Part shown: positions 31,643-61,283 of the stretch, piece by piece
Numbering within the stretch: the stretch's first letter is position 1
Layout: each line of letters starts with the position of its first letter
IMG/VR virus record: IMGVR_UViG_3300042314_001189
Location: 73,445 to 137,444 of that record
Length of the DNA stretch: 64,000 nt
Source of the DNA: a virus
Strand: one strand, 5' to 3'
The notes under the pieces: generated by a model
Told to the model about the DNA's origin: nothing
What the model saw: only the letters and a program-made list of their open reading frames with translations
The model's database searches: none
Program-made: the position numbers and the translations under genes

Positions 31643-32731
31643 ATGAATAAGAAAAAATTTTTAACAGAATCAGATAGAAAAAAAATTGTATCTGACAAAG
31701 AAAAAGCGATACTAGAAAGTTTTGCAAAAACTTTTAACAAAATCAAACGTATTGACGAAAATGAAGTTGCTGGTATCGAAACCAAACAGTTAGAGAAAAA
31801 AGCTTTTGATTTTGCTAATTCACCAGAAATGGGTCAATTGGTTGATAAAATTTTAGCTAATGCTAAACCAGAAGACTTACAACAAATCAAAAATGCTGTT
31901 GGTTCAGTATCTGAAGGTATGATGTGTGAAAATGATTTTTCTTCATTTTTAAACATTGCACATAAAGCACAATCAGCGTTAAGTGAAGATAACAGCGTTG
32001 GTAGTTTACAAAATAGTGTTGGTAAAGCTCTTTCAACTTTTGGTGTGGTTAATATCATGTCAATGGGTATGTTACCATCATTAGTTGGTATGGCTGTTGA
32101 CCATTTTGGTGGAACAAATTTCTTACAATCATTTAGCGATGCTATTGGTTCTGGTGGTGCAGCTGCTGGTTTATCAGTTATTGGTAGTTTAATTGGTGGT
32201 GGTTTATTATGGAGATTAGGTAAAGCTATTTCTGGTGAAAAAGTAACTGGTGATACGCCATTATTTGAAACGGATATGAACGATGGTAAAACTATTTTAA
32301 AATCAACAGACAAAGATGATTTAAAAGCAGATATTGCTAAAGAAAAAAAAAAACACCCAAATGCAAAAGTTGGGCTCATAACTAAAAATGGTAAAATTTT
32401 TAGTGTTGAAATAACCCACAATAATGTTAATGAGGGTGAAGATTATGAAAAAATAGGTAGAGAAGTTGAATACGGAATTAACCCATATGAAGAAGAATCT
32501 AATGTTAGTTTTGAACCTATGAATAATGATGAAAAAAAAATGTTATCATATGTTTCTAAATATGTTGGTAGTGAATTAGAGCTTAGTGATGAAATGGATA
32601 ATTATAGAAACTTAGGTTATCAAGGTTTTTCTGATAATGTTAAAAACGCATTAAGAAACGATATGGATTATCAAACATGGGTTCAAATGTCACATGATGA
32701 AGATACTTTTAGACGTGAAAGAGGTTTTTAA
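31643..32731 (+). CDS. putative virion protein with hydrophobic Gly-rich segment
   Basis: TATTTATA upstream; LTE/ILE/IDE/LSE/VNE motifs; central hydrophobic helices. Confidence 0.55.
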   Translation: MNKKKFLTESDRKKIVSDKEKAILESFAKTFNKIKRIDENEVAGIETKQLEKKAFDFANSPEMGQLVDKILANAKPEDLQQIKNAVGSVSEGMMCENDFSSFLNIAHKAQSALSEDNSVGSLQNSVGKALSTFGVVNIMSMGMLPSLVGMAVDHFGGTNFLQSFSDAIGSGGAAAGLSVIGSLIGGGLLWRLGKAISGEKVTGDTPLFETDMNDGKTILKSTDKDDLKADIAKEKKKHPNAKVGLITKNGKIFSVEITHNNVNEGEDYEKIGREVEYGINPYEEESNVSFEPMNNDEKKMLSYVSKYVGSELELSDEMDNYRNLGYQGFSDNVKNALRNDMDYQTWVQMSHDEDTFRRERGF

Positions 32732-32835
32732 TAAAAAAAATAAAAAAAACACAAAAAAACTTGACAAAACAAAAAAAAGTTAGTACCTTTGTATAACTTT
32801 TAAATAAGAGAGTATATTTAATAAAAGAAACAAAA

Positions 32836-32934
32836 ATGAGAACAATAAACATACATATGATTTCGATTAGTAATTGGAGACGCAATAGTCACCATACTGG
32901 TCAAGGTATGTTTAATGACATCATAGAATGGTAA
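32836..32934 (+). CDS. attenuator leader peptide 1 (MRTINIHMISISNWRRNSHHTGQGMFNDIIEW)
   Basis: Follows promoter TTGACA 32761 / TACCTTTG 32784; codons 4-20 are all I,N,H,M,S,W,R, matching downstream tRNAs. Confidence 0.85.
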   Translation: MRTINIHMISISNWRRNSHHTGQGMFNDIIEW

Positions 32935-49050: not shown

Positions 49051-50655
49051 ATGTTGTTAAAAAGTAAAATCTCGTTAGTGCTTTCATTATTGATAATGAT
49101 ATTGTATTTCACTGTTCAATCCTTATTGGTTTTTGATATTATTCAATATTCAAAAAATTTAGGGTATTTTGGTTATGGTTGTTTCATAGCATTTTTATTC
49201 CCTTTTTATATTTTTGCCAAAGGGTTTATTAAAAATGCGAATCAAATCAAAAGTAATTTCAACCAAACTCAAAAATTTATAGACGAAGCGTCTATTATTT
49301 CAAAAGCTGATGCTAATGGTAAAATAACGTATGTAAATAAAAAATTTACAGACGTTTCTGGTTGGTCCTTAGAAGAAGTCGTGGGTAAAGACCATAATAT
49401 TGTTAATTCTAATACACACCCAAAAGAGTTTTGGTCTAATATGTATAAAACAGTCGTTAAAGACAAAAAAATATGGAACGAGATTGTAACCAACAAGGGT
49501 AAAAACGGTGATTTTTATTATGTTGATACCTATATAAAAGCTGAGTTTGATAGTGAAACAAATAAATTGTTAGGTTTCACGTCAATAAGACAAGATGTTA
49601 CAGAATTGAAAAGAAAAGAGGGTGAAATTTCTAATAGAATGAACGCTATTAATAAATCTAATGCTGTTATTGAGTTTGATTTAGATGGTAATATAAAGTT
49701 TGCAAATGATTTATTTTTAAACACACTAGGTTATGAACACCAAGATGAAATCGTAGGAAAACATCATAGTATATTTATTGAAGATGAATATAAAAATAGT
49801 GATGAATATAAAGATTTTTGGAAAACATTAAGACAAGGCGTTTTCTTTAGCGGTGAAATTACCAGAAAGAAAAAAAATGGTAATTTAATTTATCTTCAAG
49901 CAACGTATAACCCTATTATAGGAACCGATGGAAATGTTTATAGCGTAATGAAAATTGCTACTGATATTACCGAAAGCTACAATCAACAGCTGGAGATTGA
50001 TAAGAAAAACACATATCTAGAACATGCTGCTAAGATACTTAGACATGACATGCATTCTGGTATAAATACTTATATGCCAAGAGGGGTATCATCTTTGGAA
50101 AGAAGATTAACACCAGAAATTGTAGATTCTATAAAATTAGAGGCACCTTTAAAAATGATAAAAGAAGGTTTGAAACACACTCAAAAAGTATATAAAGGTG
50201 TATATGAATTTACAAATTTAGTAAAAACTGATGTAGTTTTAACAAAAACTGAATGTAGTATTCAGAAAATAATGGATGATTATTTAACTTCTACTGCTTA
50301 CAAATCACAAGTTCATTTAGATGATAACTTACCTACATTAGAGGTTAATGAATCTTTGATGTGTACGTCAATTGATAATTTAATTAGGAATGGTTTAAAA
50401 TATAATGATAGTAAAAGTAAAGTGGTTAAAATTTACAGCGAAGGTGACTATATTTGTATTGAAGATAACGGTAGGGGTATTACCCAAAAAGAATTTGAAG
50501 AACTTTCAAAACCTTACGTTAGAAAAGAAGGGCAAAAAGAAACGGGTAGCGGTTTAGGGCTTAACATATGTAAAGCTATTTTAAAAGAACATGGTTTTGA
50601 TATCACAGCTGAAAAGTTAGAACAAGGTACAAAATTAAGAATAAAAATAAAATAA
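49051..50655 (+). CDS. membrane PAS-PAS sensor histidine kinase
   Basis: 2 TM, two PAS domains, ILRHDM H-box, DNLIRNGLKY, EDNGRGI, GSGLGL. Confidence 0.9.
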   Translation: MLLKSKISLVLSLLIMILYFTVQSLLVFDIIQYSKNLGYFGYGCFIAFLFPFYIFAKGFIKNANQIKSNFNQTQKFIDEASIISKADANGKITYVNKKFTDVSGWSLEEVVGKDHNIVNSNTHPKEFWSNMYKTVVKDKKIWNEIVTNKGKNGDFYYVDTYIKAEFDSETNKLLGFTSIRQDVTELKRKEGEISNRMNAINKSNAVIEFDLDGNIKFANDLFLNTLGYEHQDEIVGKHHSIFIEDEYKNSDEYKDFWKTLRQGVFFSGEITRKKKNGNLIYLQATYNPIIGTDGNVYSVMKIATDITESYNQQLEIDKKNTYLEHAAKILRHDMHSGINTYMPRGVSSLERRLTPEIVDSIKLEAPLKMIKEGLKHTQKVYKGVYEFTNLVKTDVVLTKTECSIQKIMDDYLTSTAYKSQVHLDDNLPTLEVNESLMCTSIDNLIRNGLKYNDSKSKVVKIYSEGDYICIEDNGRGITQKEFEELSKPYVRKEGQKETGSGLGLNICKAILKEHGFDITAEKLEQGTKLRIKIK

Positions 50656-56813: not shown

Positions 56814-57068
56814 ATGAAAAACGTAAATTTAACAGTACTTTATTTAGCTTTGGTATCAGAATTTGGTGTGACTAGCTTTGAATTATCTAGCATTGTCCCA
56901 ACAACAACAAATGAGCCGATTGATGCTATGATTGATTTTAACTCTAAGTTAGATGAATTTGATGTTGACAGAATACAATCAATTGTTACTGAAAACATAA
57001 CTGGTGAAGTTAAACAAGCAACCGTTAAAACAAAAGGAAACGTTATACACGTTTATATTGAGTTTTAA
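56814..57068 (+). CDS. hypothetical protein
   Basis: 84 aa ORF. Confidence 0.5.
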   Translation: MKNVNLTVLYLALVSEFGVTSFELSSIVPTTTNEPIDAMIDFNSKLDEFDVDRIQSIVTENITGEVKQATVKTKGNVIHVYIEF

Positions 57069-57640
57069 GCTTTAAAATCACTCATATTGATAACAATGTT
57101 GTCCATGAAAGATTTGTCAACATAAGACCTTTCTTTATTGACTGGCCAACCACTTTTTAAATTGTTGTCAATGTGTGCTTGAAGCTGAAGATGCGGAGAC
57201 CTATTTGCTGGTATTTTTGGGTCAGCCAAAACAATACTAGGCATACGATTGTCATATATCCCAATGTAGTAAGAAAGACCACTTTTAACGTCTTCTTTAC
57301 GTTGAGCCGTGACAACAGCTGTTACTGGATTACCTTTAACTGGTTGTACTTTAACCATACCTAGAGGTACCAAAACACAAATACCTTCTTTGCCTTTTTT
57401 ACCAATAGGGTAATCAGTAGCAATAACTGCATTTATTTTATCTTTTAATTTTGCTTGAAGTTGTGAGATTATCCAAGCGTCTTGTGTTTCTTTAGATGCG
57501 TTAGGTAAATAAACATTTGCTGGTAATTGAATACCAATGATATCGTTAACTACTTCATTAACACGGTCATTAAAGTGAGCCATTGGGTCGGCTTCGGTAA
57601 TATATTCTAAAAGATATTTTTTCAATAAGTCTTTAATCAT
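57065..57640 (-). CDS. hypothetical protein (head-targeting-like N-terminus)
   Basis: MIKDLLKKYLLEYITE; TATTTATA upstream. Confidence 0.6.
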   Translation of the reverse strand: MIKDLLKKYLLEYITEADPMAHFNDRVNEVVNDIIGIQLPANVYLPNASKETQDAWIISQLQAKLKDKINAVIATDYPIGKKGKEGICVLVPLGMVKVQPVKGNPVTAVVTAQRKEDVKSGLSYYIGIYDNRMPSIVLADPKIPANRSPHLQLQAHIDNNLKSGWPVNKERSYVDKSFMDNIVINMSDFKA

Positions 57641-57761
57641 GATAATATTTTACTATAAATATTGTAAAAAAATAATAAAACACTTGACAAACATAAAAAA
57701 AAGTAGTATCTTTGTGTAACTTTTATAAATAATGGTATATTTAATAAAAAACAAAAAAATT

Positions 57762-57836
57762 ATGAAAACTATTAACACAGTACTTACTTTATTATTATGT
57801 TTGCTAGTGGCAGACTGGGTGGGCTATGCGTGTTAA
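57762..57836 (+). CDS. attenuator leader peptide 2 (MKTINTVLTLLLCLLVADWVGYAC)
   Basis: Follows TTGACA 57684 / TATCTTTG 57707; codons 7-16 are V,L,T,L,L,L,C,L,L,V, matching downstream Cys/Val/Leu tRNAs. Confidence 0.85.
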   Translation: MKTINTVLTLLLCLLVADWVGYAC

Positions 57837-57860
57837 AAGTTGAATACTATATAACAAGAG

Positions 57861-57891
57861 AAGCCCATCTAAGTAATTAGATGGGTTTTTT
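57861..57891 (+). terminator. attenuator terminator 2
   Basis: AAGCCCATCTAA gtaa TTAGATGGGTTT T-run; 5' arm pairs with TGGGTGGGCT (57816-57825). Confidence 0.85.
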
Positions 57892-57898
57892 GCTTTAT

Positions 57899-57969
57899 GG
57901 CACCGTGGCCGAGTGGCTAGGCAGAGGTCTGCAAAACCTCGAACACTGGTTCGAATCCAGTCGGTGCCT
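57899..57969 (+). tRNA. tRNA-Cys (GCA)
   Basis: Cloverleaf, loop CTGCAAA, U73. Confidence 0.9.
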
Positions 57970-57984
57970 CTAAAAATAATAATT

Positions 57985-58137
57985 ATGGAAAAAGAAAAAA
58001 CAGTATTAACGGGTAAATTTAAAGGTTCTAGGGAATTTTTTAGACCAAAAGTGAATCAATTAGAAAATAATTTTAATTGGGGTAAAATGATAAAAAAGTT
58101 GTTAAAGACTAAAAAAAAAGTAAAAAAAGTGTTATGA
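57985..58137 (+). CDS. small basic protein
   Basis: ATG 57985, about 50 aa. Confidence 0.45.
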   Translation: MEKEKTVLTGKFKGSREFFRPKVNQLENNFNWGKMIKKLLKTKKKVKKVL

Positions 58138-58472
58138 TTAGTAGTAAAGAGTTCTTAATGAACAGAGATGAAACGGGTAGACTTATTGTCAAAATGCTTG
58201 ACGGTACAAACAAACAATATTTTGTTGAGTTTATTGAACCTAAAGGCGGTATTAGAACAGATTGGGGTTCTTATAACCCTAGTACTGGGAACATCGAGAA
58301 TAAAAAAGGTGCTGGTAAGTACAATGGTGGTATACCAGCAAGTGAATCATTGATTACTGTCAAAAATGGTTTTAGTGAAGAAAACGCTAACACTATTTAC
58401 GAAGGGGCTTCGTTTGAATCTACTATAACAGAAATGCACGCTAAATGGAAAAAAGAAAATGGTTATGCTTAA
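58134..58472 (+). CDS. hypothetical protein
   Basis: 112 aa ORF. Confidence 0.6.
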   Translation: MISSKEFLMNRDETGRLIVKMLDGTNKQYFVEFIEPKGGIRTDWGSYNPSTGNIENKKGAGKYNGGIPASESLITVKNGFSEENANTIYEGASFESTITEMHAKWKKENGYA

Positions 58473-58767
58473 TGAAACTGAAATAAAAAAAGACTTATTT
58501 AAGTCAAAAGCAATGGCTAAGTTTAATCACTATATTGCTGGTAACTTATATTACAACGTTGAAGTATTTGGTGATATGTATGTATTTCCGATTGCAACTG
58601 TAGAAGAAGTAATTGAAACTGATTCGTTTGAAAGAGAAGAAATACAAACACTAAAATTATCTTCAGATTTAGGTACAACTATATTTAAAAGTGAAATTAG
58701 AGGTTCTGAATTAGCTAGATGGATTAGTAAAGCCATAAAGAATGAAACATTTATAAAGCTAGGGTAA
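58459..58767 (+). CDS. hypothetical protein
   Basis: 102 aa ORF. Confidence 0.6.
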   Translation: MVMLNETEIKKDLFKSKAMAKFNHYIAGNLYYNVEVFGDMYVFPIATVEEVIETDSFEREEIQTLKLSSDLGTTIFKSEIRGSELARWISKAIKNETFIKLG

Positions 58768-58779
58768 AACCTAGTATAT

Positions 58780-58851
58780 TGGACTGTAACTCAGAGGCAG
58801 AGTGCTGCTATGACATGGCAGAAGTCGGGATTTCAAAATTCCCCAGTCCAA
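58780..58851 (+). tRNA. tRNA-Val (GAC)
   Basis: Cloverleaf, loop ATGACAT. Confidence 0.8.
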
Positions 58852-58858
58852 CAAATAT

Positions 58859-58931
58859 TGAGATATAGCTCAGTGGAAGTAGCAACTCCCTTACATGGAG
58901 AAGGTCGTAGGTTCGAATCCTACTATCTCAA
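58859..58931 (+). tRNA. tRNA-Val (TAC)
   Basis: Cloverleaf, loop CTTACAT. Confidence 0.85.
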
Positions 58932-58990
58932 CTTTAATGTTTCATAAAAAGTGAAACAAACAATTAAATTTCACATAAAGTGAAATAAAT

Positions 58991-59023
58991 GCTTCGGTGG
59001 TGGAATAGGTAGACACGAGGGAC
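58991..59023 (+). pseudogene. 5' half of a tRNA-Leu truncated at the anticodon loop
   Basis: GCTTCGG-TGGTGGAATAGGTAGACAC-GAGGGAC then unrelated sequence leading to HNH gene. Confidence 0.7.
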
Positions 59024-59055
59024 GACTTTTCTATCATATCTACATATTTATTAGT

Positions 59056-59484
59056 ATGGAAGATATGGAATTTATCAAAGTGTGTCAAGAATCTGACACC
59101 ATGGCAAAAGCGGCTGCGACTTTAGGGTTGCATTTTAATACTTTTAAACGTAAAGCGGTTAAATTAGGTTGTTATAAACCAAATCAAGCTGGTAAAGGTA
59201 TTACTAAAAAAGATAATGGTAATAAAATATCATTAGATGAAATATTAGGTGGTAAACACCCTTATTACCAAACTAATAAATTGAGGAAAAGATTGATTAG
59301 TGAGGGTTATAAAACTGGTGAGTGTGAAGAATGTCATATTACTGAATGGAATGGTAAACCAATAACTATTGAATTAGACCATATAGACGGTAATAGAAAT
59401 AACCATTCATTAGAAAACTTGAAAATGTTATGTCCAAACTGCCATAGTCAGACACCAACATTTAGAGGTAAAAAAAGAGAATAA
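59056..59484 (+). CDS. HNH homing endonuclease
   Basis: CEEC, ELDHIDGNRNNHSLENLKMLCPNCHSQT; N-terminal HTH-like segment. Confidence 0.9.
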   Translation: MEDMEFIKVCQESDTMAKAAATLGLHFNTFKRKAVKLGCYKPNQAGKGITKKDNGNKISLDEILGGKHPYYQTNKLRKRLISEGYKTGECEECHITEWNGKPITIELDHIDGNRNNHSLENLKMLCPNCHSQTPTFRGKKRE

Positions 59485-59568
59485 GCTCCGATGGTGGAAC
59501 TGGTAGACACGCAGCACTTAAAATGCTGTTCCCAGACGGGAGTGAGGGTTCGAGTCCCTCTCGGAGTA
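59485..59568 (+). tRNA. tRNA-Leu (TAA)
   Basis: Variable arm, loop CTTAAAA. Confidence 0.9.
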
Positions 59569-59576
59569 CAATATAT

Positions 59577-59658
59577 GCGGATATGGGGGAATTGGTAGAC
59601 CCGCTGGTCTTAGAAACCAGTGCCGAAAGGCGTGCGAGTTCGAGTCTCGCTATCCGTA
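59577..59658 (+). tRNA. tRNA-Leu (TAG)
   Basis: Variable arm, loop CTTAGAA. Confidence 0.9.
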
Positions 59659-59661
59659 CAA

Positions 59662-59982
59662 ATGATAACAAAATTAGTAAACATTAAGAATGAACCTTAC
59701 GATGTCTATATCGGTAGAGGTTCTAAATGGGGTTGTCCTTATACAATAATCAAAGATAGACGAACACTTGCAACTGAAATAGTTGGTTCTAAAGAAGAAG
59801 CTTTATCCAAGTATCGAGATTATGTGTTGGCTAGTCCAGAACTTATGAGTTCACTAAGTGAATTGGAGGGGAAGACGTTGGGTTGTTTTTGCAAACCAGA
59901 AAAATGTCATGGTGATATCTTGTTAGAATTATTAGAAAGAGAAAAATTAAAAAAATTTTTTAATAATAATTTGGATAAGTAA
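59662..59982 (+). CDS. DUF4326-family protein
   Basis: YDVYIGRGSKWG, ELEGKTLGCFCKPEKCHGDIL. Confidence 0.8.
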   Translation: MITKLVNIKNEPYDVYIGRGSKWGCPYTIIKDRRTLATEIVGSKEEALSKYRDYVLASPELMSSLSELEGKTLGCFCKPEKCHGDILLELLEREKLKKFFNNNLDK

Positions 59983-60023
59983 AATATTATTATTACCTTT
60001 GTGTATAATCTTATATTTATATT

Positions 60024-61207: not shown

Positions 61208-61283
61208 GTTTAGATAAATTAAAAAAAAAGTTGTAAATAAATTTGGATATGTCAAAAATTATTTATACCTTTGTAAAAGAAAA

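Follow-up and report, generated by a model that had tools for sequence, protein, structure and literature searches.

We analyzed a 64,000-nucleotide (nt) stretch of viral DNA (the window), which is the final 64 kb of the 137,444-bp IMG/VR virus record IMGVR_UViG_3300042314_001189. Sequence comparison and RNA folding models indicate that a 24-codon leader open reading frame (ORF) in this window, Leader 2, probably acts as a ribosome-mediated (leader-peptide) transcription attenuator that controls a phage transfer RNA (tRNA) operon. The best reading of its signal is the speed at which the leader is decoded, and hence the supply of charged tRNA-Leu, tRNA-Val, and tRNA-Cys, and the tRNAs of the operon are probably made only when ribosomes read Leu, Val, and Cys codons slowly. 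A sequence-only reading of the window had proposed that Leader 2 gates the downstream tRNA cluster, and this proposal is now supported in silico by conserved and covarying elements and by the match between leader codons and tRNA genes in paralogues and relatives. The elements of the leader region, in window coordinates, are as follows.

57684-57714, + strand: promoter of the TTG / TAnnTTTG type, TTGACA, 17 nt, TATCTTTG
57722-57761, + strand: 5' untranslated region (UTR), with a presumed transcription start and a conserved GTATATTTAAT at 57735-57745
57762-57836, + strand: leader ORF, 24 codons plus TAA (stop codon 57834-57836), predicted peptide MKTINTVLTLLLCLLVADWVGYAC
57780-57809, + strand: putative sensor run, codons 7-16
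57786-57790, + strand: segment 1, paired with 57816-57820 in the minimum free energy (MFE) fold (predicted anti-antiterminator helix)
57799-57815, + strand: inner hairpin GTTTGC / TAGTG / GCAGAC, arms 57799-57804 and 57810-57815, a possible pause hairpin
57816-57825, + strand: segment 2, TGGGTGGGCT, predicted 5' strand of the antiterminator, which would lie under a ribosome at the stop codon
57860-57891, + strand: predicted intrinsic terminator, 5' arm 57860-57872, loop 57873-57876, 3' arm 57877-57889, T run to 57891

Leader 2 and its sensor codons

Codons 7-16 of Leader 2 read GTA CTT ACT TTA TTA TTA TGT TTG CTA GTG. Nine of the ten specify Val, Leu, or Cys, a count given in the sequence-only reading and evident directly from the sequence, and the odd one is ACT (Thr). 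The order of the downstream tRNA genes was likewise as that reading had described it. These genes were called by ARAGORN and agree with Rfam, whose tRNA scores in the Leader 2 cluster range from 48.5 to 63.3 bits.

57899-57970, + strand: tRNA-Cys(GCA)
58780-58852, + strand: tRNA-Val(GAC)
58859-58932, + strand: tRNA-Val(TAC)
59485-59569, + strand: tRNA-Leu(TAA)
59577-59659, + strand: tRNA-Leu(TAG)

Under standard wobble rules, which we assume to hold here, GTA and GTG are decoded by the tRNA with anticodon TAC, TTA and TTG by the one with TAA, and TGT by the one with GCA, and CTA, perhaps also CTT, would presumably be read by tRNA-Leu(TAG). Of the phage's Leu codons, 52% are TTA.

Cys, Val, and Leu together account for 15.7% of the residues across the record's 135 long ORFs, and none of the 39,469 10-residue windows in those ORFs contains nine or more of these residues. 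Among 649 short ORFs, a run of this kind was present in two, Leader 2 and one unrelated antisense ORF. The Val/Leu/Cys run by itself is rare, not unique, and we consider it significant because of its position and its paralogues.

The promoter region of Leader 2 is 77% identical over ~130 nt to positions 32726-32851, which hold a promoter and the start of a leader, and the same promoter motif heads all related units. The region before the Leader 2 ATG is A-rich and lacks a Shine-Dalgarno sequence. An in-frame ATG at 57732-57734, 30 nt upstream and inside the GTATATTTAAT motif of the UTR, would make the leader 34 codons long. This upstream ATG is specific to this record and absent from all related units examined, and we therefore take 57762 to be the conserved start. 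A consensus scan of the + strand from 57715 to 59970, which phage-specific promoters would escape, found no further TTG..TAnnTTTG promoter. Given that no other such promoter occurs before 59970, the entire Cys-Val-Val-Leu-Leu stretch can depend on Leader 2.

Paralogous leaders and relatives match their own tRNA clusters

Six-frame translation of the complete record returned exactly three ORFs that start with M[KR]T[IVL]N, Leader 2 among them, each with the same promoter type upstream and a terminator and tRNA cluster downstream. Leader 1, MRTIN-IHMISISNWRRNSHH-..., precedes tRNAs for His, Trp, Ile, Met, Asn, Asn, Met, Arg, Arg, and Ser, Leader 2 precedes those for Cys, Val, Val, Leu, and Leu, and Leader 3, MRTINNI-FEFDFFAAEADF-..., precedes those for Phe, Glu, Asp, Ala, Ala, and Glu. 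We defined the sensor share as the fraction of codons between codon 6 and segment 2 that specify an amino acid for which the cluster holds a tRNA. Measured against their own clusters, Leaders 1, 2, and 3 had shares of 15/15, 9/12, and 12/17; measured against the other two clusters, they had 0/15, 0-1/12, and 1-3/17, respectively.

Relatives were collected with two promoter-based pattern scans of IMG/VR, together with one 54-kb record, which gave 20 distinct units in IMG/VR contigs (3 of type A, 9 of type B, 3 of type C, and 5 of type D). A filtered pattern scan for type B in IMG/VR and metagenome contigs raised that type to 24 non-redundant units. The Val/Leu/Cys run is kept in the 24 non-redundant type-B relatives, and wherever the contig is long enough, the terminator is followed by tRNA-Cys and then by Val and Leu tRNAs. 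Type D, exemplified by MKTTFTTYQPKQTQGGKP..., precedes Pro, Gln, Tyr, Thr, Gly, and Lys tRNAs and was not found in this incomplete record. The four leader types together cover all 20 amino acids. When leaders were compared with clusters in a cross-matrix, the share was 0.50 to 1.00 for a leader's own type and at most 0.26 for the other types, and the own type was always the best. The residue order of type D differs between phages while its composition is kept, as a codon sensor predicts and unlike a structural peptide. The matches listed from metagenome contigs included at least about 18 true leaders, and those listed from bacterial genome contigs included none.

Several related units carry additional features. 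In the unit with Leader 3, a second promoter, TTG..TACCTTTG, lies at window positions 61243-61273, between the terminator and tRNA-Phe, and the type-C units of relatives likewise carry a second promoter after the terminator. One IMG/VR contig of 232,931 bp (L062) has an extra 36-codon basic ORF between the promoter and its type-A leader, MRTINIHMISISNWRRNSHQVSGMF..., and in the same unit the segment after the leader run (GTCGGGT) matches its own terminator arm (ACCCGAC). Many related leaders, among them L031, L058, L043, L056, and L010, have an optional small hairpin, rich in G+C, that lies upstream of the ATG and downstream of the conserved ATATTTA motif of the 5' UTR. Its sequence varies among these leaders (for example, GGGTTAAAACCC and GAGAGCAATCTC), and this record's three units lack it.

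Alternative pairings in the leader RNA are conserved and covary

The region 57722-57898 folds with a z score of -4.12, and its MFE structure is a long imperfect hairpin across the ORF and the terminator. The terminator hairpin is formed by GAAGCCCATCTAA, the loop GTAA, and TTAGATGGGTTTT with its T run. Its end at 57891, 7 nt before tRNA-Cys, is where the sequence-only reading had put it. The same reading had paired segment 2 with the 5' arm of the terminator, and this 10-bp duplex with two G-U pairs, between TGGGTGGGCT (57816-57825) and AGCCCATCTA (57862-57871), withstood comparison with shuffled sequences: its energy was -16.8 kcal/mol (Duplexfold) versus -7.3 ± 2.2 kcal/mol for 300 shuffles (p = 0.007), and 200 shuffles gave p = 0.005.

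We examined conservation of these helices in alignments of 12 and 23 type-B sequences; L319 was left out of the larger alignment, and L072, which is cut at a contig end, was left out of the pair counts. The terminator helix was 94.4% paired in the 12-sequence alignment and 95.5% paired over the 23 sequences, where seven of its pairs had changed on both sides and slid controls reached 20 to 58%. The antiterminator was 92.5% paired over the 23 sequences, with slid controls at 27 to 59%. One of its pairs covaries as C-G (14 sequences), U-G (6), and U-A (3), and a second is G-U in 14 and A-U in 9, the latter changing a GTG (Val) codon to ATG (Met). Segment 1:2 and the inner hairpin taken together were 94 to 95.5% paired across the two alignments, versus 36 to 55% when slid (94.0% over the 23 sequences, slid 38 to 53%). 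The segment 1 helix (columns 25-29 with 61-65) was paired at 90% in the 12 sequences and 87.7% in the 23, and in this window the segment 1:2 helix is short and contains many G-U pairs. The inner hairpin was 100% paired in 12 of 12 sequences and 98.6 to 100% paired in the 23. One of its pairs is A-U in 14 sequences, G-C in 7, and G-U in 2, with TTA plus GTA (Val) alternating with TTG plus GCA (Ala). These alignments indicate that residues of the peptide change in such a way that the RNA pairing is kept.

When the whole upstream sequence was searched without bias for the best partner of the terminator 5' arm, all 24 non-redundant type-B units gave a site within codons 17-23, with p ≤ 0.04 in 23 of them and p = 0.055 in the remaining one. 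A G+C-rich stem followed by at least six T was present in 24/24 units, all types included. The helices of types A and D differ in sequence among phages. Type A swaps GGTCAAGG/CCTTGACC for TTGAGTC/GACTCAG, GAGTCGG/CCGACTC, or GTCGGGT/ACCCGAC, and the type D variants ATCGGGT, GACTGGGT, GGACTGG, and ACTGGGT each come with their own complement. The antiterminator sequences of these two types differ yet remain complementary, and their covariation is stronger than that of type B.

Ribosome position and the predicted switch

To model the ribosome, the RNA was cut before the 3' arm of the terminator and folded while a 28-nt ribosome footprint was moved codon by codon. Averaged over the 24 type-B units, pairing of the terminator 5' arm was ~0.81 for A-site positions at least 10 codons short of the stop codon and 0.23 to 0.36 for those closer to it, the stop codon included. 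This release was seen in all 24 units. In this window, the antiterminator stays formed with the A site at codons 2-15, and the masked-fold switch falls at codon 15/16, which is the end of the Val/Leu/Cys run. The sequence-only reading had suggested that a ribosome at the stop codon would cover segment 2, and the masked folds do release the terminator 5' arm at that position.

The elements themselves, the way in which they are conserved and covary, and the correspondence of codons to tRNAs are direct observations in silico. From them we infer the transcription start, translation of the ORF, the efficiency of termination, stalling, and the physiological signal, and we propose the following mechanism. 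A host-type RNA polymerase would start from the promoter at 57684-57714, and a ribosome would translate the 24-codon leader. If charged Leu, Val, or Cys tRNAs were scarce, decoding would be slow, and the ribosome would linger on codons 7-15, where it would cover segment 1 and the inner hairpin and leave segment 2 (57816-57825) free. Free segment 2 could then capture the terminator 5' arm (57862-57871) while the 3' arm is still to be transcribed, and the antiterminator so formed would allow read-through into tRNA-Cys, the small ORFs, the two tRNA-Val genes, and the two tRNA-Leu genes. If decoding were fast, the ribosome would reach the stop codon and cover segment 2, the terminator would form, and the transcript would end at ~57891. 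If the leader were not translated at all, segment 1 would hold segment 2, and the terminator would again form, with the same end at ~57891. The loop would regulate itself, since it yields the very tRNAs by which the sensor codons are decoded: given that the cluster anticodons read these codons, the output should speed its own sensor and act as negative feedback. Candidate natural causes of the shortage include a mismatch in codon usage, decay of host tRNAs, or a tRNA-cleaving defense.

Leader 2 might, in addition, be one channel of a four-channel monitor of tRNA supply, an extension that we put forward tentatively and consider quite possible. Here, four attenuators would split the 20 amino acids among four tRNA operons, each switching on replacement tRNAs only when its own codon set is decoded slowly. 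The phage would read the host tRNA pool through the ribosome and repair it group by group, which would serve as a self-limiting counter-defense and as an economy device. The slowing could come from a misfit of host tRNAs to the A+T-rich codon usage, from degradation after infection, or from host anticodon nucleases.

Evidence against attenuation and alternative explanations

Several observations weigh against reading Leader 2 as an attenuator tuned to Leu, Val, and Cys codons. Two Thr codons, ACA (codon 6) and ACT (codon 9), have no tRNA in the cluster, the run contains a single Cys codon, and it lacks GTT and GTC, the codons of tRNA-Val(GAC), with GTT being 61% of the record's Val codons. Extra tRNAs in the clusters of some relatives are unmatched in the leaders (Phe in L010, Ile in L077, and His in L064). 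Type C combines a second promoter with an antiterminator that was significant in none of four units, and not every unit is a clean gate. Because of this result, we do not extend the clean attenuator model to type C, and the Phe/Glu/Asp/Ala cluster may, judging from its layout, receive a constitutive input besides the attenuated one. Because the retrieval patterns for type B prescribed part of the ORF and part of segment 2, conservation at these places is inflated; none of the patterns prescribed the terminator arm. Contigs from two metatranscriptome runs do not cover 57606-57908 and are uninformative either way. Equilibrium ribosome-masked folds were rejected as a test of the switch: the terminator was dominant at every ribosome position, with a probability of at least 0.67. 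Given that the terminator wins at equilibrium, the switch must be kinetic, as in trp, and we have assumed such kinetics.

We considered that the same attenuator could respond to general translation capacity or to host amino acid starvation (global ribosome speed, stringent state) rather than to its own set of tRNAs. The antiterminator persists whenever the ribosome is slowed within codons 2-15, a lack of the amino acids Leu, Val, or Cys would stall it just as well, and the leaders do not track the sporadic extra tRNAs in their clusters. However, the leader types are mutually exclusive in composition and each matches its own cluster, which would be pointless for a general sensor, and the kept composition of type D under a varying residue order also argues against this explanation, which we regard as unlikely. 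A codon-specific attenuator remains our preferred interpretation of Leader 2. Still less likely is a different form of translation-dependent control, in which translation would protect the nascent RNA from Rho or nucleases or would position RNase P, and in which the hairpin would be a processing or stability element and no conditional terminator. The hairpin does lie 7 nt before a tRNA whose 5' end needs an RNase P cut. Nevertheless, a G+C-rich stem with at least six T, found throughout the units, is the signature of an intrinsic terminator, and a segment that repeats the sequence of the 3' arm and covaries with its partner, the 5' arm, fits an antiterminator and would be superfluous for a processing signal.

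We find it least probable of all, and highly improbable, that Leader 2 is simply the gene of a small hydrophobic membrane or signal-like peptide followed by a constitutive terminator, with the tRNAs expressed by leaky read-through or from an unrecognized phage promoter and with the codon match being incidental. The Leader 2 peptide is hydrophobic, LLCLLV and GY.C in its core are conserved at the peptide level in relatives, the unrelated short ORF mentioned above also reaches nine of ten Cys/Val/Leu residues, and a consensus promoter scan would miss phage-specific promoters. On the other hand, the paralogous leaders, which share the promoter, N terminus, and terminator layout, are hydrophilic and spell out other tRNA sets, and amino acid changes follow base pairing (GTA/GCA with TTA/TTG; GTG to ATG as G-U to A-U). 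A Pfam search with the record's three leader peptides gave no match, which leaves the Leader 2 peptide without a Pfam family, and a promoter would not fit into the 7 nt between the terminator end and tRNA-Cys. The resemblance to a signal peptide pointed out in the sequence-only reading would then be a by-product of the Leu, Val, and Cys codons, given that the paralogous leaders are not hydrophobic.

Comparison with known attenuators

The leuL and ilvL/ivbL leaders of enterobacterial branched-chain amino acid operons, as well as thrL, are multivalent leader-peptide attenuators. Like these, Leader 2 would be a short translated leader in which the regulatory codons specify several amino acids. 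It would share with them an intrinsic terminator and an antiterminator that exclude each other, an anti-antiterminator helix, and a segment 2 that a ribosome at the stop codon covers. Unlike these, its targets are phage tRNA genes rather than biosynthetic enzymes, its output would feed back directly on decoding of the sensor codons, and it has a TTG/TAnnTTTG host-type promoter and no Shine-Dalgarno sequence. The genes under its putative control are tRNAs and ORFs of unknown family rather than the amino acid supply genes of the attenuator class, and the logic is analogous. No Rfam leader family (Leu_, Thr_, Phe_, His_, or Trp_leader) matched at its gathering threshold, and the best leader scores were 18.0 bits for Phe_leader and 17.4 bits for Thr_leader versus a gathering threshold of 55. 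Leader 2 is not homologous to leuL, ilvL, or thrL in either sequence or structure.

The pheM leader of pheST is a leader-peptide attenuator that controls an aminoacyl-tRNA synthetase. As with pheM, attenuation by Leader 2 would govern a component of the translation apparatus and no biosynthetic pathway. Unlike pheM, which is cellular and acts on a protein gene in response to one amino acid, Leader 2 would control tRNAs, and the leaders as a set share out the amino acids. T-boxes (Rfam RF00230) resemble Leader 2 in having a 5' leader with a terminator/antiterminator switch that reports the state of specific tRNAs. A T-box, however, binds uncharged tRNA without translation and controls synthetase or amino acid genes, whereas the sensor proposed here is the ribosome. 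Rfam gave no T-box match in the window, nor in 57640-57900 at E values up to 10.

It is a long-standing open question why large phages carry tRNA genes and by what means these genes are controlled. If our interpretation is true, the tRNA genes are regulated by demand, through the decoding speed of the codons that those tRNAs read, and leader-peptide attenuation extends from amino acid metabolism to the tRNA pool itself. It would also provide a directly testable sensor, in which swapped codons should change specificity. A sensor of this kind could serve as a reporter of tRNA depletion in living cells and could help to annotate hundreds of uncultured phage genomes. Within the openly accessible full-text literature, we found no description of leader-peptide attenuators before tRNA genes; the passage on a "tRNA operon" in PMC3082878 concerns something else.

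Origin of the record and neighboring features

The record has an estimated completeness of 39%, a G+C content of 32%, 24 tRNA genes, and one transfer-messenger RNA (tmRNA). Near-identical DNA is present in lake-water metagenomes (20 sequencing runs matched, 2 of them metatranscriptomes, and 18 DNA runs contained at least half of the sampled sequence words), and the source is an uncultured lake phage. Searches of GenBank phages by blastn with 57000-60000 and 57684-57898, and by tblastn with a 908-amino-acid neighboring protein, returned only tRNA, HNH, or chance matches, and at the sensitivity of these searches no cultured phage with Leader 2 was found among them. The TTG/TAnnTTTG promoter type and the missing Shine-Dalgarno sequences are marks of the Bacteroidota. 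Solely on the strength of these two features, we infer that the host may belong to this lineage.

The tRNA genes of the Leader 2 unit are interspersed with the following ORFs. HNH and DUF4326 were the only matches when the ORFs of the unit were searched against Pfam and PHROGs.

57985-58137, + strand: small ORF inside the putatively gated unit, no known family
58134-58472, + strand: small ORF inside the putatively gated unit, no known family
58459-58767, + strand: small ORF inside the putatively gated unit, no known family
59056-59484, + strand: HNH homing endonuclease ORF, a mobile insert

Positions 58991-59023, which end 32 nt upstream of the HNH ORF, duplicate 33 nt from the 5' portion of a tRNA-Leu gene, comprising the acceptor strand, the D arm, and the first part of the anticodon stem. 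The end of the HNH ORF exactly abuts the start of the complete tRNA-Leu(TAA) gene. Together, the fragment and the HNH ORF look like the scar of an endonuclease-mediated insertion with partial duplication of the target.

Elsewhere in the window, the phage encodes its tmRNA at 22750-23103 (Rfam, 66.7 bits). A further promoter, TTGACA..TACCTTTG, which closely resembles the leader promoters, lies at 23680-23710, and ~600 nt in which no leader-type ORF occurs separate it from two downstream tRNA(CAT) genes. The sole Rfam match in this region (23680-24317) is below threshold, at 24163-24222 (35.6 versus 41.5 bits). At 26565-26636 there is a tRNA whose anticodon, CTA, reads amber codons and which ARAGORN labels Pyl, and a histidine-kinase-like protein with a PAS domain (PAS plus HATPase_c) is encoded at 49051-50655.

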